A stretch of 15,578 nucleotides of DNA from Chloroflexota bacterium (GTDB taxonomy: Bacteria > Chloroflexota > Anaerolineae > Aggregatilineales > UBA3940), in NCBI GenBank assembly GCA_024643825.1, contig JAHEME010000014.1:1-15578 (forward strand), read 5' to 3'. Numbering within the stretch: position 1 is the first letter of the stretch; each line of letters opens with the position of its first letter. Shown here in pieces: positions 950 through 15,578 of this stretch. A program made the translations under genes and the position numbers. The notes under the pieces are model-generated. The model had not been told where the DNA came from. It worked only from the letters and a program-made list of their open reading frames with translations, and made no database searches.

Positions 950-3658
950 CTACGCAGGCACTAACTGTTCCTTTTCTTTTTGCTCTTTCACCACGGCATG
1001 CGCCGCCGCCAGCCGTGCTACGGGCACACGATACGGGGAGCAGCTCACATAGTTCAATTTCGTACGATGGCAGAACTCGATGCTGTCCGGTTCTCCACCG
1101 TGCTCGCCGCAGATTCCCACTTCCAGCGAGGGTCGCACAGCGCGCCCTTCCTCAACTGCGATCTCCATTAACCGACCCACGCCAATCTGATCGATTGCTT
1201 GGAACGGGTTTTTCGGCAGAATGCACTGCTCGACGTATGCCAGTAGGAATTTCCGTTCCGCATCATCTCGGCTGATCCCATACGTCATCTGAGTCAGGTC
1301 ATTCGTCCCAAAGCTGAAGAACTGCGCCATCTCTGCGATCTCGCCCGCCGTCAGTGCCGCGCGCGGAATCTCGATCATCGTCCCAAATTTGTAGCTGATT
1401 GTGATCCCTTTTTCCTCCATCACGTTCTGGGCTACTTCTTCCAGCAGCGGTTGAATCACCTTTAATTCATTGACATGACTTGTCAGCGGAATCATGATCT
1501 CCGGGTGTACGTCAATACCTTCCAACGCGGCATCACACGCAGCCTCAAAGATCGCCCGTACCTGCATCTTGTTCAGCGGCGGCAGCATGATCCCCAGACG
1601 GCAGCCCCGCAAACCCAGCATCGGGTTGAACTCGTGCATGTCCTGCACAATCGAGAGGAGCCTCTTCTTCTCCTGATATTCGTCCCCCGTATCGCCCTTC
1701 GCAGCGAGTGTCGCTGTCGCTTCTACCAGTGCCTCCAACGAGGGCAGGAACTCATGCAGGGGTGGGTCCAACAGCCGAATCACCACTGGCAACCTATCCA
1801 TCGCCCGGAAGATGTCATGAAAATCACTGCGCTGAAGCGTCAATAGCTGCTCGTCGAGAATTCGCTGAAACTCTGCCGGGTTGTTATCAGCCGCCGCCAG
1901 AATCGCACTCTGGAAGACAGCCGTACGCTCACCCAAAAACATATGCTCGGTGCGGCACAGCCCAATTCCTTCGGCCCCATAGTGCCGTGCTCGTGTGGCC
2001 TGCGGCCCGTCATCAGCATTCGCCCACACTTCGAGCTTCCGAATACCATCTGCCCATCGGAGAATCTTCTGTAGATCCTTCTCCTCTTCAAAATCCGGTT
2101 CAATAGTTGGCAGCGCGGCCTGAAAGACTCGGCCTTCTGTGCCATCCAGTGAAATCACGCTGCCTTCGTTCACCGTCGTCCCATTCACGGTAAACAGGCG
2201 GCGTTCCAGATCGATCTTGAGTGCTTCACAGCCAGCCACACACGGCTTCCCAAGCTGACGCGCCACCACCGCCGCATGGCTGGTTGCCCCACCATGCTGA
2301 GTCAGGATTCCCTGTGCAGCCAGCATCCCATGCACATCGTCCGGCGTGGTCTCCGGTCGGACGAGAATTACCGCTTTCCCGTCTTCCTTGCCCATGCGAT
2401 GAGCAAGGTCAGCATCAAAGACCACTGCACCGACCGCAGCCCCCGGCGAAGCATTCAATCCCTTTGCCAGAAGGCGACCACTCTTTTCAAGTTCCTGGAG
2501 CGCGCGCGGGTCAAAGCGGGGGTGCAGCAGTTGATCAATCTGCTCCGGCAAGATGCGCGATACCGCTTCCGCCTTTTCAATCAGCCCTTCATCCACCATG
2601 TCCACGGCGATCTTGACAGCAGCGGCAGCGGTGCGTTTACCCGTCCGCGTCTGGAGCATCCACAGCTTGCCGTTTTCAATGGTGAATTCCATATCCTGCA
2701 TGTCACGATAGTGCGTTTCCAGCGTCGTGGCGATGCGTATCAGCGACGCCAGAATCTCTGGCATTTCTTCTCCAAGTTCGCTGACCGGAATCGGCGTCCG
2801 CGCACCGGAGACAACATCCTCACCCTGCGCATTCCCCAGATATTCCCCGTACAGCATCTTCTCGCCACTGGCCGGGTTGCGCGTGAAGGCCACACCCGAC
2901 CCCGAATCCCAGCCTGTGTTGCCAAACACCATCGCCTGAATATTTACTGCCGTGCCTAGATCGTGCGAGATGCCGCACGCATTCCGATAATCCACAGCTC
3001 GCTTTCCATTCCACGACTGAAAAACAGCGTGGACGGCCAGTTCAAGCTGCTCCCACGGGTCTTGGGGAAATTCGCGTCCCGATTGCTCGCGGACGATCTG
3101 CTTGAAGGATCGCGTAACGCGCTGCCACCCTTCCGCAGATAACTCTGGGTCGGTGTCCACACCCTCCCCAGAGCGTTCAGCAGCGATCACCGCTTCCAGC
3201 AAACCCGGATCAACCCGAAGAACGACCTTGGCAAACATCTGCACCAGCCGCCGATATGCATCCCAGGCAAACCGAGAATCACCCGTTTTCTCCGCCAGTC
3301 GCAGGACGGCCTGATCATTCAATCCCAGGTTAAGTACCGTGTCCATCATGCCCGGCATCGAGAACTTGGACCCGGAGCGAACCGATACCAGCAGTGGATT
3401 CCGATCACTTCCAAAGGCGCGTTCCATGCGGTCGCCCAGGCTCTCCATAGCCCAAGTCACTTGCAACCATAAGTCCGTAGGAAATTCATGCTCGTTTTCA
3501 AGCGTGTGGAGGCACGCCTGCGTTGTGATCGTAAATCCAGGGGGAACAGGCAATCCGATCCGGGTCATTTCTGCAATCCCGGCCCCTTTTCCACCCAACA
3601 ACTCCTTCATTTCGGCGCAGCCTTCTTCAAAGGCATACACCCATTTTGTGCTGGTCAT
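950..3658 (-). CDS. ppdK: Pyruvate, phosphate dikinase (PPDK)
   Basis: 902 aa. Characteristic N-terminus 'KWVYAFEEG...GGKGAGIAEMTRIGLPVPPGFTITTQAC' (ATP-grasp/PEP-utilizer N-domain). Central phosphohistidine domain 'GGATSHAAVVARQLGKPCVAG'. C-terminal PEP-utilizing TIM-barrel signature 'GICGEHGGEPDSIEF'. The SD 'GGGAGGA' lies 7 nt upstream of the ATG on the - strand. Confidence 0.95.
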   Translation of the reverse strand: MTSTKWVYAFEEGCAEMKELLGGKGAGIAEMTRIGLPVPPGFTITTQACLHTLENEHEFPTDLWLQVTWAMESLGDRMERAFGSDRNPLLVSVRSGSKFSMPGMMDTVLNLGLNDQAVLRLAEKTGDSRFAWDAYRRLVQMFAKVVLRVDPGLLEAVIAAERSGEGVDTDPELSAEGWQRVTRSFKQIVREQSGREFPQDPWEQLELAVHAVFQSWNGKRAVDYRNACGISHDLGTAVNIQAMVFGNTGWDSGSGVAFTRNPASGEKMLYGEYLGNAQGEDVVSGARTPIPVSELGEEMPEILASLIRIATTLETHYRDMQDMEFTIENGKLWMLQTRTGKRTAAAAVKIAVDMVDEGLIEKAEAVSRILPEQIDQLLHPRFDPRALQELEKSGRLLAKGLNASPGAAVGAVVFDADLAHRMGKEDGKAVILVRPETTPDDVHGMLAAQGILTQHGGATSHAAVVARQLGKPCVAGCEALKIDLERRLFTVNGTTVNEGSVISLDGTEGRVFQAALPTIEPDFEEEKDLQKILRWADGIRKLEVWANADDGPQATRARHYGAEGIGLCRTEHMFLGERTAVFQSAILAAADNNPAEFQRILDEQLLTLQRSDFHDIFRAMDRLPVVIRLLDPPLHEFLPSLEALVEATATLAAKGDTGDEYQEKKRLLSIVQDMHEFNPMLGLRGCRLGIMLPPLNKMQVRAIFEAACDAALEGIDVHPEIMIPLTSHVNELKVIQPLLEEVAQNVMEEKGITISYKFGTMIEIPRAALTAGEIAEMAQFFSFGTNDLTQMTYGISRDDAERKFLLAYVEQCILPKNPFQAIDQIGVGRLMEIAVEEGRAVRPSLEVGICGEHGGEPDSIEFCHRTKLNYVSCSPYRVPVARLAAAHAVVKEQKEKEQLVPA

Positions 3659-3851: not shown

Positions 3852-4991
3852 CTATGACGATTGAATCTGCCTGATAATAAATTCAGCTACATCCAGCGCA
3901 GAGTGCGGTTTACCAACACGCTTTGCAGCCAGTCGGCGCTTCTCCAACTCACTGCCATCTCCTGCCAGCCAGGAATACGCGGTCGTCAAAACACCAATTG
4001 GCCCCGGCGACCATACCCCTGCACCACTTTCGACAACATAGCGCACATTCCCAACCTCTTGCCCCGGTAGCGCTTCATAAAGTACCAGCGGCAGACCGCT
4101 TGCCAGCGATTCAGTGATGATTAGCCCACCCGCCTTACATACGATGAAGTCCGCAGCCCGCATCATCTCTGCCATATTCGTGATCAACCCATACGGGTGC
4201 ACGATTCCCTTCCACTCAGTAGAGTTCAACTGTGCTTCAGTCTGCTGATCACCCCCACTGAGTGCAACCACCTGAAGCTCTAGCCCGGATCGATCCAGTA
4301 AGCGGGCGATCTGAGCAGTCTGGCCGCTGCGAGCAGACCCCACGATCAGAGCCGTAGTCAGGGTAGGGTGCCATCCAAGTTCTTCACGAATCGCCACTTT
4401 CTCACGCTGATCTTCGGCAATGCGAGGATGAACCGGCAGCCCCGTGAGCTGCATCTTTTCTTTCGTGAGTCCGTTCTCAATCCCTTGCTGGTATACCTGT
4501 TCCGTGGGCACGAAGGTGAGTGCTGCCTTTTCATGAAACCACAACGTGTGTACGCCAATGAGATCAGTAACAATAACGTCTACAGGAATCCGTTTGCCCA
4601 GTTTCTTAGCGGTTTTGATCGCTGCTTGCGTGTAAGCCGGATAGGTCGTAAGGAATATCTCAGGATCATGACGCTCGATCAAGCTCTGCATCGTGCGGTT
4701 CAGGGCTGTAGTTGCCACGTCCTGCACAAGCTGCGCTACGACTGGGGCATCCGTCGCGGCATAGGCCAATTGATAGAACGCTGGATCATCCGTCACCATC
4801 TCGTCATACCCTGACTCAAGCTGCTTCAGTAGGTCAGGCAGATACGGATCCTGAAAGGGATTGAAGATCGCAATCTCGTCACGGCTGTCTAGCAGAGGGA
4901 TCAAGGCGGCTTCGACGGCCTCAGCAGCGCGGCGATGACCAAACCCCGCGTCAGCCGTCAGAATGATGATACGCTTTGGTTCTTTCGCCAT
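3852..4991 (-). CDS. GT28-family glycosyltransferase, monoglycosyl-diacylglycerol (MGDG) synthase/UgtP-like
   Basis: 379 aa. N-terminus 'RIIILTADAGFGHRRAAEAV' resembles the MGDG-synthase N-terminal domain (I-L-x-S/A-D-x-G-G-H-R). C-terminal GT-B motif '...FIVCKAGGLIITESLASGLPLVL...PGQEVGN'. The overall MurG/MGDG-synthase architecture is present. Confidence 0.75.
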   Translation of the reverse strand: MAKEPKRIIILTADAGFGHRRAAEAVEAALIPLLDSRDEIAIFNPFQDPYLPDLLKQLESGYDEMVTDDPAFYQLAYAATDAPVVAQLVQDVATTALNRTMQSLIERHDPEIFLTTYPAYTQAAIKTAKKLGKRIPVDVIVTDLIGVHTLWFHEKAALTFVPTEQVYQQGIENGLTKEKMQLTGLPVHPRIAEDQREKVAIREELGWHPTLTTALIVGSARSGQTAQIARLLDRSGLELQVVALSGGDQQTEAQLNSTEWKGIVHPYGLITNMAEMMRAADFIVCKAGGLIITESLASGLPLVLYEALPGQEVGNVRYVVESGAGVWSPGPIGVLTTAYSWLAGDGSELEKRRLAAKRVGKPHSALDVAEFIIRQIQSS

Positions 4992-5175: not shown

Positions 5176-6519
5176 ATGACATTGATAAACAAACTCAACT
5201 TTCCCGATTCCTTCCAGTGGGGGACGGCGACCTCCTCCCACCAGGTAGAAGGAAATCTAACCAACAACGATTGGTATGCCGCCGAGCAGCAGGGCGGTTA
5301 TATTTATGAAAATCAGCGTTCCGGGCAGGCATGCGATTGGTGGAACCGCGCCGAAGAAGACTTCGACCGCATGGCCGCCATGCACCAGAATGCCCACCGC
5401 CTCTCCATCGAATGGAGCCGCATCGAACCCCGTCAGGGCGTGTGGGATGAGTCGGCTCTTGCTCGCTATCGGGAAATGCTGGTGGGCCTCCGTCAGCGCG
5501 GCATCACCCCGATGGTCACTCTCCATCACTTCACCAACCCCCTCTGGGTCTCTGAAGCAGGCTCGTGGGAAAATGAGCAAATCATCACCTGGTTTGAACG
5601 CTACACGCGCAAGGTAGTCGCGGCGCTCGGCGATCTGGCCGATATTTGGTGTACCATCAATGAACCGGGCGTGGTCGTTTCCCATACCTATCTTCTTGGG
5701 CGCTGGGCTCCCGGCAAGCGCGACATCAACGGCGCGTTGCACGCAACGATCAACATGATGCGCGCACACGCAGCCTCCTACCGCGCCATTCACGATCTCC
5801 AACCAACCGCGCAAGTGGGTCTCGCCCACCATATGATCATCTGGAAACCCTGGCGACCCTATGCCATCACCGATTTACTGGCGACCAATATGGTTCGCTA
5901 TATGTTTCAGGAGCTTCTGCTGAAAACCATTGCTTGGGGCGTGATGCGTGTTCCCGGGAGACGCTCATACCTCATGCCAGAGGTTAGAAACACCCTGGAT
6001 TGGATTGGCCTGAATTACTATCAGCGCTATCGTATCCGCCTCGGTCTCCCACCATTCAGCAAACCCTCTGTAGAGCACCGCACACACCCCGATTTGCAAA
6101 CCGGCCCAGGCGAATGGGGCGAGATCCACCCACGTGGCATGTTCGATACCCTGCGCATGCTATGGAAGGTCTACCGCATCCCCCTCTACATCACCGAGAA
6201 CGGTATTCCCGACGAGAACGACGAGAACCGCCCCGGTTTCATCATCTCCCACCTTCACCAGCTATGGGAGGCAATCCGGGAGGGTGTCCCGGTGAAGGGC
6301 TATTATTTCTGGAGTCTCATCGATAACTTCGAGTGGACCGAAGGCTACGATCCGCGCTTCCGTTTTGGCCTGATCGGGGTCAACTTCGAGACGCAGGAAC
6401 GCCACATCCGACCCAGCGGCAATCTCTACTCTGCCATCTGCCGTGATGGGGGTCTCAGCCGCGATCTCGTCTCTCAGTACGCCCCACACTTGGCGCAGAC
6501 TGTCTTCAGTGGAGCCTAA
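5176..6519 (+). CDS. Glycoside hydrolase family 1 beta-glucosidase/beta-galactosidase
   Basis: 447 aa. N-terminal 'FPDSFQWGTATSSHQVEG'. The acid/base catalyst motif 'TINEP' and nucleophile motif 'YITENG' are both present, and there is a C-terminal 'FEWTEGY' motif. This is a typical GH1 (beta/alpha)8 enzyme. Confidence 0.92.
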   Translation: MTLINKLNFPDSFQWGTATSSHQVEGNLTNNDWYAAEQQGGYIYENQRSGQACDWWNRAEEDFDRMAAMHQNAHRLSIEWSRIEPRQGVWDESALARYREMLVGLRQRGITPMVTLHHFTNPLWVSEAGSWENEQIITWFERYTRKVVAALGDLADIWCTINEPGVVVSHTYLLGRWAPGKRDINGALHATINMMRAHAASYRAIHDLQPTAQVGLAHHMIIWKPWRPYAITDLLATNMVRYMFQELLLKTIAWGVMRVPGRRSYLMPEVRNTLDWIGLNYYQRYRIRLGLPPFSKPSVEHRTHPDLQTGPGEWGEIHPRGMFDTLRMLWKVYRIPLYITENGIPDENDENRPGFIISHLHQLWEAIREGVPVKGYYFWSLIDNFEWTEGYDPRFRFGLIGVNFETQERHIRPSGNLYSAICRDGGLSRDLVSQYAPHLAQTVFSGA

Positions 6520-7205
6520 ACGATCAGCCGGGTCACGATCAGGGCCACGAACACCATAATGTACAGGTGAATCAGAAACGGGTAGACGAACGATCTCGTC
6601 CGCCACGCCACCCAGCCGAACGCCGCGCCGCCAAAGATCGTGCTCAGAGTTTCTAGCGGTGGCTTGGTGAGATGTGCCAGCGCAAACGGCACAGCCTGGA
6701 TAAGTACCGCAATCGGCCCCATCACCGGATACAGGGCCGCCAGGTAGAATCCCCGAAATACAAATTCCCACCCCACCAGATCAAGCGCCGTCGTTGCTAC
6801 CAGTTCCCCCATCGGCTGATGGCGGTTCGCATAATATTCCGCCATCCCAGGCGCATGTGCCGCCGCAAACAGGATCGGCGTTGCCACCACGCACGCCCCC
6901 AGTGTGATCAGCAGCCCGCGCCGCCAATCCCCCAGCGCAAACCCATAAGCGGAGGGTCGTTCCCGGAAGATCACCACGATCACCAGCAGCGGAATCACAA
7001 GGTACAGAAAGATCCGATCCAGCGCCTTGTTGCGGAGGAAATTCCCCATACTCTCATATGGCAGGAAGCGGTTGAACCCGTCGTAGTAATAATCCACCAT
7101 GATCAGCAGCGTGACCAGTACAGTCGCCATCGTCGCTTTTCGCGGCAGTGGCAGCCCGAACAACCGAAACGTGCGATCCTTTCCCCGGTCTTCTCTCAGA
7201 TCCAC
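6516..7205 (-). CDS. CPBP-family (CAAX protease/Abi) intramembrane metalloprotease
   Basis: 229 aa, multi-pass hydrophobic protein. Motif 1 'GWEFVFRGF' (EExxxR-like) and motif 2 'VPFALAHL' (FxxxH) are present. The annotated start at 7205 is GTG and overlaps the cupin 3' end by 10 nt. An in-frame ATG at 7130 ('MATVLVTLL', giving 204 aa) is an equally plausible start. Its TAG stop (6516-6518) overlaps the GH1 TAA stop (6517-6519) on the opposite strand. Confidence 0.7.
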   Translation of the reverse strand: MDLREDRGKDRTFRLFGLPLPRKATMATVLVTLLIMVDYYYDGFNRFLPYESMGNFLRNKALDRIFLYLVIPLLVIVVIFRERPSAYGFALGDWRRGLLITLGACVVATPILFAAAHAPGMAEYYANRHQPMGELVATTALDLVGWEFVFRGFYLAALYPVMGPIAVLIQAVPFALAHLTKPPLETLSTIFGGAAFGWVAWRTRSFVYPFLIHLYIMVFVALIVTRLIV

Positions 7206-7552
7206 TGCGCCTGTGCCGTTCGCTCACCCTGAACATCCCCCGTATTGACCGTCGTCTTCGGTTCCAGCAGCAGAATCCATACTTCCTCCTCTGCGACGGG
7301 CATGTGCTCCACCCCGCGCGGAATGATCACCATCTCCCCCTCGTCCAGCCACCGATCCCGATCCCGGAAGCGAATCAGCAGCCTCCCTTTGATCACCAGG
7401 AAGAGTTCATCCTCGTGTTCATGCTGGTGCCATACGAATTCACCCTCTACCTTGACAAGCTTCACATACGAATCATTCAGTTCCCCGATGATCCGTGGTT
7501 TCCAGTGATCGTCAAACAGGCTGAATTTCTGTGCAAGATTGATCACATCCAT
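7196..7552 (-). CDS. Cupin-2 conserved-barrel domain protein (small single-domain cupin)
   Basis: 118 aa with a canonical cupin motif region, 'GEFVWHQHEHEDELFLVIKGRLLI...EGEMVIIPRGVEHMP' (G(X)5HXH(X)3-4E(X)6G ... PxGxxHxxxN-like). The SD 'AGGGAGAAG' lies 9 nt upstream of the ATG. Confidence 0.85.
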   Translation of the reverse strand: MDVINLAQKFSLFDDHWKPRIIGELNDSYVKLVKVEGEFVWHQHEHEDELFLVIKGRLLIRFRDRDRWLDEGEMVIIPRGVEHMPVAEEEVWILLLEPKTTVNTGDVQGERTAQAQWI

Positions 7553-7612: not shown

Positions 7613-7643
7613 GCCATAAGAAAAGCCCCTGAATCCGGGGCTT
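7613..7643 (-). terminator. Rho-independent terminator of the TPR-CHAT transcription unit
   Basis: On the - strand: stem 'AAGCCCC' / loop 'GGATTCA' / stem 'GGGGCTT', followed by 'TTCTTATGG'. It lies about 200 nt downstream of the CHAT stop (7847) and immediately upstream of the cupin promoter. Confidence 0.6.
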
Positions 7644-7846: not shown

Positions 7847-10800
7847 CTACGGGGCGCTCTTTACATGAGGGGTAGGTTTACCGGTCAGGAAGAACGGTGC
7901 CCATTGGAAAACACAGAGATTGGTTTCGATAGCCTGCCGTTGCACCTGGGCCAGCGCGCGTGCAGGAGGCTGTCCTTCTTCCAGATTCTGATACAGTTGC
8001 TCCATGAACAACGCGCCGCTCGGATCATCCTGTACCGGCCACATACTGGCGATGACATTCTGCGCCCCACCGCTAAGAAATGCCTGGATCATCCCGTTGA
8101 TTTCATCTCCTTTGTGGGCGCTCCCCATCCCTGTCTGACAGGCAGAGAGCGTCACAAGCTCGGCGCATGTCTTCCATCGCAGAATATCCTCCACCCAGAT
8201 GGCTCCATCCCGTGTCGCCAGCCCCATGAAGGCCCCGCTGTACCGATCATACTGGCTGTGAGTAATGAAATGCAGCCGCCGCATCGAGCGGAGGGTTCCA
8301 TTCTCGGCCAGTTCATCCAGCCGATCTCGCTGGAAGTCATCACCCGAATGGATTTCAGCGTGCTTTCGGATGGCGGCTTGTACGAGTTCCGCTTCTTGCC
8401 GGGCATATTGCAGATCGCCGAATTGCTGATCCGCAAACACGTCCTGAGCAAAAATCAGGCTGCCACTCCCATTCCACTCATGTATAGATGGGCGGGTAAG
8501 CGACGCATGCAGCAGTTCCAGCGAAGGCGCATAACCCACTTCCGCCCGTTGAATCAGCGACTGGTCTTCTGGATCCAGTAGAGCGTGGAAGGGCAGTTGA
8601 TAGAGATGCCCTGACGGGATAATGATCAGGGGCTGATCAGGGTGACAGATTTCGCGGAGCGAAGCGGGAATCAACGCGTCATGTAGAATGCGGCGACTCC
8701 GTTTTCCCAGTTCATCATCCACTCTGCCATAGATCATCTTGCGGAAGCTGGTATCAGGCCGTGTGTTGAGGTCGAACACCTCCACAAGATCGCGGGTGAT
8801 CGGGATCGGATGCGCCTCAAATGTATCGGGCGTGATCAGGAACCGCCATAGCAACCCTTCATTCTGCCATGCATACCGCAGAATCGCCCATCCAGATCCT
8901 ATCTGCGTCATCATTTCAGCGCGTATTCGATCCTCAATCCCCACTGGGGAATCAGTGCTGTCCTGTCCAAACCGCACGCTGACCAACTGCGCCCCGTACA
9001 TCTCAGCTAAAGCAAGCTGCTCTCTGGGGCGGTTGAGCGTCGCTGCCAATCTAAAAGCATCTTCAAAGACCGGGCGGAGTTCTCCGACGAAGTGCTCCAT
9101 CAATGTTTCATGAGGAAGCGTCCAGCGGCTCTCCTGCATCCGTCGCATCGCAGCCATATACGCATCTAGGGCTGACTCAGGCCGACTCTGGGATATCGCC
9201 ACCCGTGCAGAAGCAGCATCATGTCGCCATCGAACTCCACCTTGCAGCATTTCGACCTTCATCTGCCCAAGAACATCAGTCGCCCGTTGCGAATCTCCCC
9301 CGCTGAGGTAGCTTTCTGCTTCCCCAATCTCGGAATCGTGGGCGGCTTCCGTCTGTCCCAGGCGATACAGATCGATCTTGCTTTGCTGAAAGGCAAGGCT
9401 GGCAGCCTCAAAGTCCCCTTTCTTGAGCAGAAGCTCTCCCCGAATCTGCTGGGCGAGGGCGGCGTCCCGTTTCAATCCATGCTTCACCGTCAGCGTTTCT
9501 GCCATTGCAAGCCATTTATCGGCTTCCTTGATTGCATCTGCGAGAGTTTCTTTGTCTCTTTCTTTCGCCAACAACATCGAAGCCAGATAAATCGCCAGTC
9601 GCAGACTGTGATTTTTGGCCTTTGGTTTTCGCAGCGCAGCCATACCCTCTCTCGCTTGCTGGATGGCTGCATCCTGGTAGCCAAAGGCCCGGTACGCCTG
9701 CGCGAGGAACTGTGTGGCAAGCGCGTAGTACTCATACTCCTTGTTTTTCTTAAATACGGGGATTGACCGTTGGAGCAGATCGAGTGCGTCACCAAATCTA
9801 CCCTCTGCAATAGCGATCCTTCCCAGGTTTGCATCGCACAGGACAGCCAGGATCGAAGAATCCAGTCTGGTGAAGATCTCCCTTGCCGTCAGGTAAGCCT
9901 CGCGAGCTACGGCATAGTTGCCCAGTAATTGCTGAACGTGCCCTGCTATCAATAGGTTATTAGCGCGAACACCATCGAGCTGTAGTTCAACAGAGATCGG
10001 TTTGGCGATCTGAAGCGTGCGGAGGCTCTCATGCAGGTCGCCCTCATTATTCTGCACTTCCGCTTTGAGAGTGAGCATTGTTGCGAGGTAATAATGGTGC
10101 CGTAGAGCCGTAGCCTTGCGAATACCCTGATCAATCCAGTAGTACGCCTCGCTGATCTCACGCTTGTGGTAGTGATATAGCCCATGCTCAAACCACGCCC
10201 ATGCAAGCATGGCAGGCATCCTGGCGCGTTGGAATAGATCTTCTGCCTGTTCTATTTCCTGCAAGCCCTGTTCTAGTTTTCCTGTCCGTAACAACCAGTA
10301 AGCACGTAGCGTCTTTGCGATGCCCTCATCTCCACCCAGGTCATGCTGGTGAAAGTAAGCCTCCACACGCTTCAGGAGGATCATGAGATGTGGATTCTTT
10401 TCAGATATCTCTTTCCCTGAGACCCCATCCATCCGGCAGCGCATCGCGCCAGTTGGATCACCCAGTCTATCCAATTGATCCGCGATTGCGATCATCCTCT
10501 CAAACGGATCGCCTGTTCTTGTGAATCTCCTCTGGCTTACCAGATGATGCCAGGTAGCATACGCTCCAATCGGCGATGGCAGCCCGGCTGCATCTGCCTC
10601 ACGCAAGAAGGGCAGCGATTCAATGTAGTACCCCCACCAGCATAGCCCCATTCCAAGCGCCAGCTTTGCCAGCGCCACCCGTTGCGGGTCATCCAGAGTC
10701 GCCGCCACTTCCAGCGCGCCACATCCCAGCGCCGTCCCCAGAACCGGGTGACGCCTTGATAAAGACGCAGCCTGTTCCAGCATGATCAAAGGAGCACCCC

Positions 10801-10909
10801 GAATACAGGATGCTCCTTGAGTCCATACGTTTTGGATTTTCGTCTGCCGCGTGACCCGCCCATCGACAGACAGAAGTCGTTCGCGGATCGCGTCAGGGAT
10901 TTCAGCCAT
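7847..10909 (-). CDS. TPR-repeat / CHAT-domain protein (caspase-like cysteine protease of the HetF/Csx29 superfamily) with a long N-terminal TPR-like helical-repeat region
   Basis: 1020 aa. The C-terminal ~250 aa form a CHAT domain with the His-Cys dyad contexts 'LHFITHSQYD' (His) and 'LVTLSACQTGMG' (Cys), followed by 'GAQNVIASMWPV'. Residues ~150-700 are Leu/Ala/Tyr-rich helical TPR-like repeats ('EAYYWIDQGIRKA', 'AYRAFGYQDAAIQQAREGMAA' and similar). Confidence 0.9.
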   Translation of the reverse strand: MAEIPDAIRERLLSVDGRVTRQTKIQNVWTQGASCIRGAPLIMLEQAASLSRRHPVLGTALGCGALEVAATLDDPQRVALAKLALGMGLCWWGYYIESLPFLREADAAGLPSPIGAYATWHHLVSQRRFTRTGDPFERMIAIADQLDRLGDPTGAMRCRMDGVSGKEISEKNPHLMILLKRVEAYFHQHDLGGDEGIAKTLRAYWLLRTGKLEQGLQEIEQAEDLFQRARMPAMLAWAWFEHGLYHYHKREISEAYYWIDQGIRKATALRHHYYLATMLTLKAEVQNNEGDLHESLRTLQIAKPISVELQLDGVRANNLLIAGHVQQLLGNYAVAREAYLTAREIFTRLDSSILAVLCDANLGRIAIAEGRFGDALDLLQRSIPVFKKNKEYEYYALATQFLAQAYRAFGYQDAAIQQAREGMAALRKPKAKNHSLRLAIYLASMLLAKERDKETLADAIKEADKWLAMAETLTVKHGLKRDAALAQQIRGELLLKKGDFEAASLAFQQSKIDLYRLGQTEAAHDSEIGEAESYLSGGDSQRATDVLGQMKVEMLQGGVRWRHDAASARVAISQSRPESALDAYMAAMRRMQESRWTLPHETLMEHFVGELRPVFEDAFRLAATLNRPREQLALAEMYGAQLVSVRFGQDSTDSPVGIEDRIRAEMMTQIGSGWAILRYAWQNEGLLWRFLITPDTFEAHPIPITRDLVEVFDLNTRPDTSFRKMIYGRVDDELGKRSRRILHDALIPASLREICHPDQPLIIIPSGHLYQLPFHALLDPEDQSLIQRAEVGYAPSLELLHASLTRPSIHEWNGSGSLIFAQDVFADQQFGDLQYARQEAELVQAAIRKHAEIHSGDDFQRDRLDELAENGTLRSMRRLHFITHSQYDRYSGAFMGLATRDGAIWVEDILRWKTCAELVTLSACQTGMGSAHKGDEINGMIQAFLSGGAQNVIASMWPVQDDPSGALFMEQLYQNLEEGQPPARALAQVQRQAIETNLCVFQWAPFFLTGKPTPHVKSAP

Positions 10910-10949
10910 AGGTGATTCTCAACAGGGAAGGTTGATCAGCATGAGTTTT

Positions 10950-11357
10950 CTACTGGAGAGTCTTCAGTCGCAGATGGATCGCATCAAATTCTGGCGGGAT
11001 GCGCACGTTAGAAAACTCAATCTTTTGATTTTGAACGGGTGATTCGTAAGGCAGATCATCAATGACAAGTTCCGCTATCATTGGCTCTGAAATCGGGTCA
11101 CCATACAGTTCCCCTAGGACAAGGTAGCTTCCCTCTTCCTGCCCATCCAGCAGAGTCAGCATAACCCGGATCAGCGCATCATCAAGGCGAATTTGATCAT
11201 AGAGCAGCAGTCTGCCTCCCGGCTGAATCGGAGCCAGAGCGCGCATCCCTGCCGAATAATCCGGCAGCGCGATCTCCATCGGAATCACGATTTCTACATC
11301 AAATGATGTTGTCGTGCTGCCATCTCGGATATTGATCTGTGGTGTGCTTGTATCCAT
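10950..11357 (-). CDS. Small acidic hypothetical protein (135 aa, or 145 aa if it starts at 11387), probably co-transcribed with the downstream TPR-CHAT gene; no recognisable domain
   Basis: ORF in six-frame track with the CHAT gene's strand and a 40-nt gap to the CHAT ATG. The preferred start is the ATG at 11357, preceded by 'GGGAG' with a 7-nt spacer. The upstream ATG at 11387 has no SD. The protein has no Cys, no TM segment, is D/E-rich and has mixed beta/alpha character, with 'MDTSTPQINIRDGSTTTSFDVEIVIPMEI...' at its N-terminus. Confidence 0.55.
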   Translation of the reverse strand: MDTSTPQINIRDGSTTTSFDVEIVIPMEIALPDYSAGMRALAPIQPGGRLLLYDQIRLDDALIRVMLTLLDGQEEGSYLVLGELYGDPISEPMIAELVIDDLPYESPVQNQKIEFSNVRIPPEFDAIHLRLKTLQ

Positions 11358-11389
11358 AATGCGGCTCCCAGAATATGATATTCCCATAA

Positions 11390-11436
11390 CTTATATAGTA
11401 TGTAAGAACCAGGGGCAAGTAGAAAAACTTGCGGTA
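11390..11436 (-). promoter_or_regulatory. Short hairpin (a weak terminator for the AttH-like gene) followed by a 'TATATAAG' -10-like element upstream of the small-ORF/CHAT unit
   Basis: The - strand reads 'GCAAGT-TTTTTCT-ACTTGC' (stem 11415-11420 and 11428-11433), then 'CCCCTGGTTCTTACATACTATATAAGTT' immediately before the ATG at 11387. Confidence 0.25.
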
Positions 11437-12729: not shown

Positions 12730-14523
12730 TTAGCCCTCTTCCACCTTCAGCGCGTGCCCATTGCTCCCGATCTTCTCCCGCATCGTGGTCGCCAGCAATC
12801 CATCGACCAATCCGCCCCGGTCACTCCCACTCACCGAGACTTCCGGCACGACGCGCACCTGATTCTCACCGATAATCTGCATCATCTGAATCGACGTGTA
12901 CCCTTCCGCACCCAACGCCTCGACTCCAGCTTGATACGCTTCCGCTTGTGCATTGCCCGTTGCGCGGATCGCCTCCGCATCACCCTTGGCCCGCAGCCGC
13001 GTCGATTCGGCTTCACCCGTCGCGTATTTGATATTCGCTTTCGCCTGCAAATCAGCGATGCTCACACCCTGTTCCGCTTCCACCATCTCCTGTTGGATGT
13101 CCGCCATCGCCGTCTCGCGTACAAGCTGCTGACGCTGCTTCTGCGCTTCTTCCTGCACCTCGTACGTCTTGCGCTGCTCTTCCGCGATCTTCCGTTCCGT
13201 CTGCGTATGCATCAGTTCTTCCGGCGGCGTGATGTCGCCGATCAGCGTATCGATTGCCTGCACGTCATATGCGCCAATCGCTGCCCGGATGTGCTGCGCC
13301 GCTTCCGCCTGACGCTCACTGCGTGCGAACAGGAAGTCCAGCACCGTGTAGTATTGCGCCGAATTGCGGAAGTAGTTCCCCACAATTGGTTGCAGCACAT
13401 GATCCACCATGTTCTGCATCGATCCCACCCGCGAGATCACGCGCGGTGCTTCCGGCGCGCCCACATGAATGATCTGCGAGACATCCAGATTGAACGCGAA
13501 CCCGTCCTTGGATCGCACTGTGATCGACGAGAGCTTACCATCATACCCGTGTGCCTCTGTCCGCGTTGCCCAGTTCAAGACGATGTTCGTCGTCGGAACC
13601 AACTCCACCCGCATGATCTGCGTATTCAGTGGATGCTTGCCGGGGTAGAGGGGCGAGACCCATACGCCTTTGTGCCCCGGATTCACCAGATCGCCATGCT
13701 TGAACTCTGTCCCGCTGACATCTTCGTGTGCGCGCCCTACAAACGAAATCACCACGCCCACATACCCAATCGGGATCTCCGTCATCGGAACCTGATCCAC
13801 CTGCACAAACCACGGATTCAGATTCCACGACCCGGAGAGCAGTACTTGCTCCTGAAGCCCCCGTGATCCTTCCCTATCCATGAACGACTGTGCGTTCTGG
13901 AAGTTGTTGTGACCGGGGATTGACGGCCCGGCGATCTCGCCTTCCGGGATCGGATTACCATCCAGCGTGGTTACGATCCCCACCGTATCCGGCGAAACCC
14001 GATACACCTGTAGATAAGCCGCGTTCATGCCATGCGATGCGGCGTTTGTGGCGGTGATCACCGTAAAAAGCGCCGTGTTGATCCGGTACGTCCCGGCGGT
14101 CAGGATGCCCAGTTGCCGCCCCTTCTCGCCGCCATTGGCAAGGAACTTCCGCGCGTTCTGGAAGTTATCGCAGTCCACCACCTTCGCCAGAATCCGCTGA
14201 GGCGGAGTCGCGTTCCCATCCGCCGCCACGATCAACCCGATCTCCCCCTGCGGGATCACCAGCATCGGGACTTTGTGAATCGTGTACTGCCATCGCCAGA
14301 ATCCGAGGTGCAGCCCCGGCGCGAGCGTATCGGCCTGATACCCCGCCTCGCCATTGAGCGCCACCATCCGCCCGGCAGGGAGACTCTTCCCTGCGAACTT
14401 CTTGACTACGATCCCCACCTGCCGTTCGCTGATCACAACGATACCCAGCGCCGCGCTGATCAGGAACAACACCGCGATCAGTCCCAACGAACCCAATACA
14501 ATGAGAACAAACAACCCGTCCAT
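12730..14523 (-). CDS. Flotillin-like SPFH/Band-7 domain protein (FloT/YuaG family)
   Basis: N-terminal TM segment 'MDGLFVLIVLGSLGLIAVLFLISAALGIVVI', then an SPFH domain ('ERQVGIVVKKFAGK...'). The C-terminus has a flotillin-type Ala/Glu/Gln-rich coiled coil ('EAEQGVSIADLQAKANIKYATGEAESTRLRAKGDAEAIRATGNAQAEAYQAGVEALGAEGYTSIQMMQIIGENQVRVVPEV'). The six-frame ORF extends to a GTG at 14559. The ATG at 14523 is preferred because it is preceded by a strong SD 'GGAGGA' with a 5-nt spacer, giving 597 aa. Confidence 0.85.
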   Translation of the reverse strand: MDGLFVLIVLGSLGLIAVLFLISAALGIVVISERQVGIVVKKFAGKSLPAGRMVALNGEAGYQADTLAPGLHLGFWRWQYTIHKVPMLVIPQGEIGLIVAADGNATPPQRILAKVVDCDNFQNARKFLANGGEKGRQLGILTAGTYRINTALFTVITATNAASHGMNAAYLQVYRVSPDTVGIVTTLDGNPIPEGEIAGPSIPGHNNFQNAQSFMDREGSRGLQEQVLLSGSWNLNPWFVQVDQVPMTEIPIGYVGVVISFVGRAHEDVSGTEFKHGDLVNPGHKGVWVSPLYPGKHPLNTQIMRVELVPTTNIVLNWATRTEAHGYDGKLSSITVRSKDGFAFNLDVSQIIHVGAPEAPRVISRVGSMQNMVDHVLQPIVGNYFRNSAQYYTVLDFLFARSERQAEAAQHIRAAIGAYDVQAIDTLIGDITPPEELMHTQTERKIAEEQRKTYEVQEEAQKQRQQLVRETAMADIQQEMVEAEQGVSIADLQAKANIKYATGEAESTRLRAKGDAEAIRATGNAQAEAYQAGVEALGAEGYTSIQMMQIIGENQVRVVPEVSVSGSDRGGLVDGLLATTMREKIGSNGHALKVEEG

Positions 14524-14645
14524 GCCCGTCCTCCATCCCCATCGCGCCGAAGTACGCACAATCTGATCGCACAGCCGCGATCATTCCGCTACGATAGCGC
14601 GCGGGAAGGGGTAGCCCGTATCCCAATTTCCGGGGGATTCAACGC

Positions 14646-14719: not shown

Positions 14720-15578
14720 TTAGTGATTGCGCCGCAGTTCCTGCCGAATCTGCCCGATATTCATCCCCGATTCATACAGCGCAATCAGGTCACGCACGGT
14801 CACATCGCCATACGCTGCCGCCAGCGAAACCATCTGCTTGAATATCCCCAGCGGAATCCCCGATTCGTTCAGCGAGAAGGCTTCGTCCGGTGTCAGCCCC
14901 GATTCGCGGGCCAGCGGGTAGAGCTGCTTGATCTGCCCGAACCCATACCCCGCGTCGAACCACCCCATGATCTCCTCGTACGGCACGCCGAGTTCTTCCG
15001 CCAGCCGTGTTCCGTGTGGATGCACCGTTAACGGGCCATCCACCGAAGCCAGCGTCTCTTCATTCGCCTGCACCACCACGCTCCGATCAGCCACCTGCAC
15101 ATGGACGGCCCCTTCGAGCGTCGCATAGTACGTCGCCTGGTCAGAGACGATCTCCGTCTCAAACACCGTCCCTCGCACCGATGCAGTCGAAGACGGGGTC
15201 TTGAGTTCGAACACCTCGACATCAGCCAGCGTTGTCTCTACTCGGCTGAACACTCGCCCCGCATCGAGCGACAATCGAACCCGATACGCTCCCTGCGTCC
15301 CGGTGCTGAGTTCCTCCACCGCCAGCGCGGTTCCTTGATCGAGCGTGATCATTGATCCATCATTCAGCGCAAGCTGTCCGATCTCACCCGGTTCGAGCGT
15401 GATCGTATCCCCGGCCTGAATCACCCGCGTCTCGGTGACCTTCTCGCCATTCTGCAAATCGAGATCGGATAACCGAATCGGCCCGCTGACTGTCGCGATC
15501 CGCAGTTCGGCAGCCTCTGCGGTTGCCGGAACCAGCCCCAATTGCGGCACAGCCACAAATCCAACGATCAACACAACC
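14720..15578 (-). CDS. FecR-domain secreted protein with C-terminal tandem ~30-aa repeats, 5'-partial (runs off the window edge)
   Basis: The ORF is open to the window end. The first in-window start is GTG at 15574, and the frame continues beyond it. N-terminal signal-peptide-like 'LIVGFVAVPQLGLVPATAEA|AE'. FecR-like beta-sandwich region 'VIQAGDTITLEPGEIGQLALNDGSMITLDQGTALAVEE...VEVFELKTPSSTASVRGTVFETEI'. Two C-terminal repeats: 'PYEEIMGWFDAGYGFGQIKQLYPLA' and 'TVRDLIALYESGMNIGQIRQELRR'. Confidence 0.55.
   Translation of the reverse strand, partial: VVLIVGFVAVPQLGLVPATAEAAELRIATVSGPIRLSDLDLQNGEKVTETRVIQAGDTITLEPGEIGQLALNDGSMITLDQGTALAVEELSTGTQGAYRVRLSLDAGRVFSRVETTLADVEVFELKTPSSTASVRGTVFETEIVSDQATYYATLEGAVHVQVADRSVVVQANEETLASVDGPLTVHPHGTRLAEELGVPYEEIMGWFDAGYGFGQIKQLYPLARESGLTPDEAFSLNESGIPLGIFKQMVSLAAAYGDVTVRDLIALYESGMNIGQIRQELRRNH

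Follow-up and report, generated by a model that had tools for sequence, protein, structure and literature searches.

The window analysed here, a 15.6-kb stretch (15,578 nucleotides, nt) of contig JAHEME010000014.1 from a Chloroflexota bacterium, carries on its minus strand a gene for a small acidic protein and, directly after it, a gene for a TPR-CHAT caspase-like protease. We read this pair, with a probability of roughly 0.6, as a reduced form, without the sigma factor, that derives from a cytoplasmic, CRISPR-independent sigma/anti-sigma/TPR-CHAT module of the Chloroflexota (Anaerolineae type) and in which the small protein would be the dedicated partner of the protease. The features of the pair are as follows (L001, L002 and L003 are loci of close relatives; aa, amino acids).

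11390..11418, minus strand: promoter-like element TTGCCC-17 nt-TATAAG, containing TATATAAG; weak, partly conserved in L001 and L003
11365..11369, minus strand: GGGAG Shine-Dalgarno sequence, 7 nt before the ATG at 11357, at a conserved position in L001, L002 and L003
10950..11357 (stop included), minus strand: small acidic protein, 135 aa; predicted stand-alone beta-sandwich, proposed receiver (substrate or regulator) for TPR-CHAT
11241..11243, minus strand: codon of Arg39, a near-invariant Arg in a low-confidence loop of variable length before IQPGGRLLLYD
7847..10909, minus strand: TPR-CHAT caspase-like protease, 1020 aa; Pfam CHAT, TPR_12 and TPR_MalT; no signal peptide
10340..10909, minus strand: N-terminal region of the protease, ~190 aa, subfamily-specific (LCWWGYY at residue 89, RCR at residue 157; alignment A6)
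9374..10339, minus strand: TPR region, residues ~191-512; Pfam TPR_12, TPR_MalT and TPR_1; PDB profile matches are all TPR proteins
7880..8692, minus strand: CHAT domain, residues 740-1010; Pfam CHAT, partial match to NCBIfam Csx29
7623..7643, minus strand: intrinsic-terminator-like hairpin and T-run (scan: 7-bp stem, 5 GC pairs, TTCTTAT tail), 204 nt past the CHAT stop

The small open reading frame (ORF) could start at a first ATG at 11387 (145 aa) or at a second ATG at 11357 (135 aa). It ends in a TAG stop at 10950-10952, leaving a gap of exactly 40 nt to the ATG of the TPR-CHAT gene (10909) on the same strand, with the coordinates given in a preliminary description of this DNA. A word-indexed search returned five close homologues, on short metagenome contigs, with 71-79% identity. 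Because these are all 133-135 aa long and the GGGAG sequence is conserved before ATG 11357 in L001-L003, the 135-aa start is the true one; the 145-aa start was rejected on the homologue lengths and on the upstream ATG being out of frame in L001. The ratio of nonsynonymous to synonymous substitutions (dN/dS) against three homologous loci is 0.10-0.19 at dS of 0.9-1.9, so the small ORF is a real gene under purifying selection, and a chance or non-coding ORF was rejected on the same values. The N-terminus of the CHAT protein is less conserved (0.19-0.39). As first described, the small protein is acidic and free of Cys (22 Asp and Glu against 9 Lys and Arg, isoelectric point 4.16, 0 Cys). Its maximum 19-residue hydropathy of 0.91 leaves no transmembrane (TM) segment, and it has no match in the Pfam, NCBIfam or PADLOC libraries.

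The larger gene encodes a member of the CHAT family, with a match to Pfam CHAT (PF12770) of 167.6 bits against a cutoff of 24 (E 5.5e-49, residues 740-1010), and a match to TPR_12 (E 1.3e-13). The predicted catalytic dyad is His884 in LHFITH (8258-8260) and Cys924 in LSACQTG (8138-8140), 40 residues apart; for comparison, the dyad of the Myxococcus protein DdvA is H862/C907 (PMC11506125). Both motifs, as LH(F/L/I)xTH and LSACQ(T/S)G, are kept in the CHAT proteins of the related loci L007 and L008. Since the protein has neither a signal peptide nor a TM segment (maximum 19-residue hydropathy 1.27), we take it to be cytoplasmic. The N-terminal ~190 residues have no Pfam match and are lacking from generic TPR-CHAT homologues, which align from residue ~250 on or over the CHAT domain only; this region is a candidate docking site for a beta-sandwich partner. 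A phmmer search with the protein against the PDB returned no match, and the subfamily profile found TPR proteins only. The NCBIfam Csx29 model (NF041237) reaches 44.1 bits against a cutoff of 300, with only the CHAT domain aligned (1.3e-11 over residues 757-975).

The preliminary description had regarded the small protein as having no recognisable relatives, which did not hold. A hidden Markov model built from six sequences found 32 cluster representatives at E<=1e-3 and 22 at E<=1e-10, with profile E-values of 1e-26 to 1e-8 against long and short family members. Most representatives are 200-224 aa long, and the window protein matches their C-terminal 125-130 residues. In the ~65-aa N-terminal part of the long forms, His13, Tyr23, Tyr37-Pro38, His43, Cys47 and Cys50 are invariant (22/22 full-length long forms), giving an H-x3-C-x2-C signature of the zinc anti-sigma (ZAS) type together with an upstream His ligand. 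Sub-threshold matches to Pfam zf-HC2 occur in 12/22 of these N-terminal domains, and no other family occurs in more than two. The best PDB profile matches of the ZAS domain are the anti-sigma factors DdvA (top) and ChrR, at non-significant E-values. The window protein itself begins at the beta-sandwich and has no Cys, and so lacks the H-x3-C-x2-C signature; it does have the IQPGGRLLLYD motif and the loop Arg of the ZAS-beta-sandwich family. By these profile comparisons, it is a homologue of the beta-sandwich that forms the C-terminal domain of soluble ZAS-type anti-sigma-like proteins. A family annotated so far as "hypothetical protein" thereby gains a domain with a defined context.

Structure prediction, one of the checks first proposed for this pair, gave usable models and no confident fold match. 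The AlphaFold2 model of a long form (P0032; predicted local distance difference test, pLDDT, 88) shows residues 8-62 as a helical bundle, 63-83 as a linker and 84-212 as a beta-sandwich. The linker is of lower confidence with a short helix at a conserved DLxFL motif, and the sandwich holds a floppy loop at residues 111-120 (mean pLDDT 57). The window protein is modelled as a nine-strand beta-sandwich (pLDDT 82) with the same floppy loop, here at residues 35-43 (pLDDT <50). Fold searches with the short- and long-form models returned weak MATH/TRAF-like matches, none of them confident, and a MATH/TRAF identity for the beta-sandwich was not adopted on matches of this strength.

Beyond the family proper, the zf-HC2 protein that precedes a more distant Chloroflexota TPR-CHAT protein (P0008) aligns over both domains to the family profile in hhalign (probability 79%, E 1.6e-5). 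A different module at L005:3961-8466 encodes an ECF (extracytoplasmic function) sigma factor of 156 aa, a membrane zf-HC2 anti-sigma factor of 227 aa with one TM segment, a DUF8256 protein of 272 aa and a TPR-CHAT protein of 821 aa (P0009). The zf-HC2 and DUF8256 proteins of L005 show no detectable homology to the family by hhalign, and the protein upstream in L004 was negative against the sigma profile; we therefore do not claim one family for all sigma/anti-sigma/CHAT loci.

We read the gene context of six independent long-form loci. Three of the six lineages (L007, L008/L009 and L012/L013) have, on one strand and tightly spaced, a sigma-like gene, the ZAS-beta-sandwich gene and a TPR-CHAT gene; in L008 the stop of the sigma gene overlaps the start of the ZAS gene. 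The sigma-like proteins are 260-290 aa long, match Pfam Sigma70_r4 at up to 3e-7, and their profile matches RpoS (1e-7) and, over sigma2-sigma4, an ECF sigma factor (3e-4). On these matches, the gene upstream of the long forms is a sigma70/ECF-like sigma factor. No component of the module has a TM segment by hydropathy, so the system is predicted to be cytoplasmic. The preliminary description had tentatively placed the pair in conflict or programmed cell death, and its neighbourhood does not bear this out. The ancestral logic appears instead to be sigma-factor signalling by regulated proteolysis, since the homologues of the partner are ZAS-type anti-sigma-like proteins beside a sigma70/ECF-like sigma gene.

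The sigma-like proteins (L008:7178-8011 and relatives, alignment A5) share a conserved N-terminal extension of ~90 aa, with the pattern N-x2-R-x-P ... P-x-T-G-I-P-D-S-Y-I-D-E-I-I. This extension has no database match and could be regulatory or itself a target of the protease. The sigma gene of L007 (7196-7990) appears frameshifted, with its sigma4 region (VIQRLLEGQTTEEIASATGRTRNAVHQLRRKAL) lying in another frame past the called stop, either through an assembly error or as a pseudogene. At ~40-100 nt upstream of the sigma genes (L007, L008, L010, L012 and L017) lies an extended -10-like element, TGATACAAT or TGCTA(C/A)AAT. An ECF-type autoregulated promoter was sought upstream of these genes and only such TGnTAnAAT elements were seen, which suggests that the housekeeping sigma factor transcribes them and that they are not autoregulated in the ECF manner.

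The pairing of the two families persists at a depth at which the protease genes have diverged widely. The window TPR-CHAT protein is 34% identical to that of L007 (1019 aa aligned, E 5e-162), 33% identical to that of L008 (about 1013 aa, E 1e-148) and 27% identical to that of L012, which is cut by the contig end (728 aa, E 6e-70). The three are collinear with it, including the N-terminal ~190 aa with the WWG and RCR motifs. Identities of the small protein to the ZAS C-terminal domains of the same loci are 40, 33 and 32%, in the same rank order as the CHAT identities; the 40% stretch covers residues 90-213 of the L007 ZAS protein. A gene of the small-protein family lies directly upstream of a collinear ~1000-aa TPR-CHAT gene, on the same strand, in the window, L001-L003, L007, L008/L009 and L012/L013. 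Because the CHAT superfamily is large and heterogeneous, the same CHAT subfamily beside the same small-protein family at such divergence could not, on these comparisons, be due to chance. The proposal that the two genes form a specific linked pair thus gained support (27-34% identity for CHAT, 32-40% for the small protein), random synteny was not borne out, and this CHAT protein is not one of many partnerless HetF-like paralogues. Among close relatives, all three contigs whose gene order was read (L001-L003) show AttH, small gene, CHAT, a synteny too shallow to carry information.

The protease gene can also be seen to come and go. Over 16 kb, L008 and L017 share ~90% nucleotide identity and differ by one clean indel of 3,092 bp (L008:8702-11793 against L017:8701-8703) that holds only the CHAT gene. 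CHAT is therefore a discrete presence/absence unit beside the sigma/ZAS pair. On the CHAT-less contig L017, the anti-sigma-like protein carries Gln in place of the near-invariant loop Arg. Neither the small-protein alignment nor the CHAT protein brought up relatives in scans of GTDB genomes. Of two metagenome scans, the first returned none and the second only the L008 contig again. No plasmid copies were found by tblastn with P0032 and the CHAT N-terminus.

The neighbours of the pair record how the window may have reached its present form. They are:

14720-15574, minus strand: FecR-domain protein; hydrophobic N-terminus, weak similarity to Leptospira LipL45/Lsa33
12730-14559, minus strand: SPFH/Band-7 protein, 609 aa, with an N-terminal TM segment
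11447-12628, minus strand: AttH/CrtC double-lipocalin protein
7196-7552, minus strand: cupin gene, downstream of the terminator
6516-7205, minus strand: CPBP/Rce1-like intramembrane protease gene, overlapping the cupin gene by 10 nt
5176-6519: GH1, 65% identical to the L010/L011 copy
3852-4991: MGDG synthase, 61% identical to the L010/L011 copy
950-3658: PPDK, 73% identical to the L010/L011 copy

In L010/L011, from a metagenome-assembled genome labelled Anaerolineae at NCBI, the sigma-ZAS pair has a divergent GH1 gene as its immediate neighbour, with MGDG synthase and PPDK next in line, and CHAT is absent; the L015/L016 pair also lies beside GH1 (65% identical to that of the window). The corresponding place in the window is taken by the beta-sandwich gene, CHAT, the terminator, cupin and CPBP, with AttH instead of the sigma gene. 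Neither the cupin nor the CPBP gene occurs in the syntenic L010 locus, in which the ZAS and GH1 genes are immediate neighbours. The window has no sigma gene, and the gene upstream of the small gene encodes the AttH/CrtC lipocalin protein rather than an adjacent cognate sigma factor. FecR domains often accompany sigma/anti-sigma systems. The spacing between the AttH gene and the small gene is 89 nt, and therefore there is no hidden ZAS exon. In a neighbour-joining tree of the beta-sandwich domain (without bootstrap), the true short forms, comprising the 135-aa group and the 141-164-aa proteins P0027-P0031, form one clade nested among the ZAS forms, most simply read as the result of a single loss of the ZAS domain. 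Together, synteny and tree suggest that the window lineage lost the sigma gene and the ZAS domain and kept the beta-sandwich and CHAT.

Three natural states can thus be compared: the full three-gene module, a sigma/anti-sigma pair without the protease, and the protease with the beta-sandwich and without a sigma factor, as in the window. Set side by side, they suggest that the beta-sandwich faces the protease and that the ZAS domain faces the sigma factor. The strongest conservation in the family lies at the loop Arg (a column at least 90% conserved in a 37-sequence alignment), followed by G/A-x-x-P-IQPGGRLLLYD; the DLxFL motif of the linker is also conserved. An old CHAT-less clade (P0063, P0050 and P0062) has no DLxFL and a degenerate QPGGR motif, and Gln stands at the loop Arg position in the recently CHAT-less P0059, where its CHAT-bearing sister P0044 has Arg. 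The window protein has lost the linker and retained Arg39 and the full IQPGGRLLLYD motif. Because separases cut after Arg and craspase sites differ between species (PMC11506125), the Arg39 loop is a candidate recognition or P1 site of the protease, albeit a doubtful one.

In the full module, a sigma70/ECF-like factor with a ~90-aa N-terminal extension, a soluble anti-sigma-like protein and a ~1000-aa TPR-CHAT protease would act in series. The anti-sigma-like protein combines a predicted three-helix zinc domain (H...HxxxCxxC), a flexible DLxFL linker and a beta-sandwich, and its ZAS domain would sequester the sigma factor. The N-terminal and TPR part of the protease may sense a signal, probably a protein. 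CHAT would then most likely act by cleaving the anti-sigma protein, using the linker and beta-sandwich as a handle, and so free the sigma factor, as Csx29 does through Csx30 and CASP-sigma. In the window the sigma-facing half is gone, and the 135-aa beta-sandwich, apparently co-transcribed with the protease, may have been retained as its dedicated binding partner, since selection kept the protease-facing half together with the protease. The small protein could be a substrate cleaved in the Arg39 loop with a new output, a pseudosubstrate that restrains the protease in the manner of securin or PCi, or, if a sigma/ZAS pair is encoded elsewhere, a decoy for it. In each case the output would no longer pass through an adjacent sigma factor.

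Several points weigh against this interpretation. No long form reaches the gathering score of zf-HC2, so the ZAS call draws on motif, gene context and predicted fold together. The window has neither a sigma gene nor a ZAS domain, and sigma release cannot operate locally. A sigma-like gene and a ZAS-beta-sandwich gene occur without CHAT in three of the six long-form lineages (L010/L011, L015/L016 and L017/L018). Because CHAT is missing from half of these lineages, one of them by the clean indel, the sigma/anti-sigma pair works without it, the protease is an accessory input at most and the link is not obligatory. The number of lineages is small, about 7 independent ones overall, and among the short forms the context survey covers the 135-aa group (the window and L001-L003). 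The Arg-loop and DLxFL sites are guesses from these few lineages.

Other explanations share parts of the same evidence. The small protein may be a stoichiometric inhibitor or chaperone of CHAT, comparable to securin or PCi, with the true substrates of the protease encoded elsewhere. Its gene lies directly upstream of CHAT, apparently co-transcribed across the 40-nt gap, and is more conserved than the CHAT N-terminus (dN/dS 0.10-0.19 against 0.19-0.39). The linker with DLxFL is lost from it, and there are precedents in securin-separase and in PCi-PCaspase, where a small inhibitor is encoded beside a prokaryotic caspase. In the long forms, however, the same domain is joined to an anti-sigma domain, an architecture easier to square with a cleavable regulator than with a pure inhibitor, and we consider a dedicated inhibitor unlikely. 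It is more unlikely still that the adjacency is simply inherited, the small gene being a relic of a decayed anti-sigma gene that is independent of the protease or nearly functionless. CHAT does come and go beside the sigma/ZAS pair, and the AttH-small gene-CHAT synteny of L001-L003 is uninformative when taken alone. A relic is nevertheless hard to reconcile with strong purifying selection and conserved length, with a lineage that lost sigma and ZAS and kept exactly the beta-sandwich and CHAT, with the co-divergence of the CHAT subfamily and the beta-sandwich family, and with the decay of the motifs where CHAT is absent.

In a stand-alone anti-phage or programmed-cell-death module, TPR-CHAT would detect an invader and convert the small protein into a toxic effector. 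This would be in keeping with what CHAT proteases do in Craspase and type III-B cascades and in the activation of gasdermins, and with the weak Csx29 match over the CHAT domain (1.3e-11). We found no defence genes in the window or the related loci examined, where the neighbours are housekeeping genes in every case, and the locus is stably syntenic with them. The Pfam and ORF survey of the 15.6-kb window agreed with the preliminary description in finding no cas, STAND/NACHT or gasdermin genes. No Cas7-11/gRAMP, csx30, csx31 or CRISPR array was found in the window or related loci, and no gasdermin-like gene is among the window neighbours AttH, SPFH, cupin and CPBP. PADLOC gave only sub-threshold BovA matches (E 0.003-0.005), plasmid copies did not appear in the tblastn search, and the partner is an anti-sigma-like regulator domain rather than a pore-former or toxin fold. 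Such a defence role, favoured at the outset, now seems very improbable. The reduced sigma-less module, with the small protein as partner of the protease, remains our preferred account of the pair.

The signals flanking the pair are consistent with a single transcription unit. A -10-like element had been reported upstream: TATATAAG is indeed present at 11390-11397, with TTGCCC 17 nt upstream of TATAAG, although the consensus promoter scan did not call this element, and a promoter at this position is plausible. The reported terminator downstream of CHAT was recovered by the scan as a hairpin and T-run at 7643-7623; over the whole region, terminator-like sites are no more frequent than in shuffled sequence (2 found against 3.7 expected). 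The scan called none between the small gene and the TPR-CHAT gene. In L003 this intergenic region (888-926) contains a perfect hairpin of 8 bp (GTCGAGGC-AGTTCA-GCCTCGAC) that no T-run follows; its window counterpart, at about 10921-10937, is a 5-bp TCAAC/GTTGA stem only. An Rfam scan of the window returned no match.

Among known systems, ZAS anti-sigma factors of the ChrR/RsrA/RslA class resemble the long forms in the H-x3-C-x2-C signature, the predicted helical N-terminal domain and the position directly after the sigma gene. ChrR carries a C-terminal beta-rich sensor domain. The C-terminal domain of the present family is another beta-sandwich, weakly MATH/TRAF-like and not a cupin, and the window protein differs further in having neither Cys nor a ZAS domain and in being paired with a protease gene. 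DdvA of Myxococcus xanthus joins ZAS, TM, TPR and CHAT in one anti-sigma polypeptide with a periplasmic TPR-CHAT part, and is thought to self-cleave before RseP acts (PMC11506125). DdvA-DdvS and the present module both couple a zinc anti-sigma domain to TPR-CHAT and an ECF sigma factor, and DdvA's anti-sigma domain is the top, non-significant, PDB match of the family ZAS profile. Here, in contrast, the proteins are separate and soluble, without the TM segment of the fused arrangement, a beta-sandwich domain is interposed and there is no defence island. In the type III-B cascades CalpL-CalpT-CalpS and SAVED-CHAT/PCaspase/PCi, cyclic oligoadenylates switch the proteases on by way of SAVED domains (bioRxiv 10.1101/2023.06.23.546230). 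In common with the present proposal, the target of the protease is an anti-sigma-like or inhibitor partner whose gene adjoins that of a sigma factor, and PCi is a small dedicated inhibitor beside a caspase-like protease; those systems, however, sit in CRISPR/CBASS loci, whereas Pfam finds neither a SAVED domain nor a cyclase here.

The closest parallel is the Craspase arm, in which Csx29 cleaves Csx30, an inhibitor of CASP-sigma (PMC10028731). In both, the gene of a cytoplasmic TPR-CHAT protein has as neighbours those of a soluble two-domain protein and an ECF-like sigma factor, the N-terminal part of the inhibitor binds and inhibits sigma (in our module, as predicted), and the proposed output is that the inhibitor is proteolysed; the window CHAT domain also matches the Csx29 model in part. 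The window differs in having no Cas7-11/gRAMP, CRISPR array or csx31 and in its Csx29 score (44 bits against a cutoff of 300), and its copy has neither the sigma gene nor the sigma-binding domain. The partner is a ZAS three-helix domain with a beta-sandwich that has no NCBIfam match, with no direct comparison to Csx30, and the activating signal could not be a target RNA. In the literature searched, CHAT together with sigma/anti-sigma was found only for DdvA, Craspase and the type III-B cascades, and CHAT goes unmentioned in the main text of the ECF reclassification paper. As far as can be seen, a split, soluble, non-CRISPR sigma/ZAS-beta-sandwich/TPR-CHAT module is undescribed, although protease-regulated anti-sigma factors are a known kind and a general principle of bacterial signalling. 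Tentatively, and with the odds leaning somewhat the other way, the full module may be an undescribed CRISPR-independent cytoplasmic switch in which TPR-CHAT cleaves a soluble ZAS anti-sigma factor and frees sigma, the window holding its receiver domain loosed from the sigma circuit. If so, it would be a free-living counterpart, and possibly the evolutionary source, of the Craspase Csx29-Csx30-CASP-sigma arm. A split, soluble version outside CRISPR offers a simpler setting for working out the activator and the targets of a bacterial TPR-CHAT protease.

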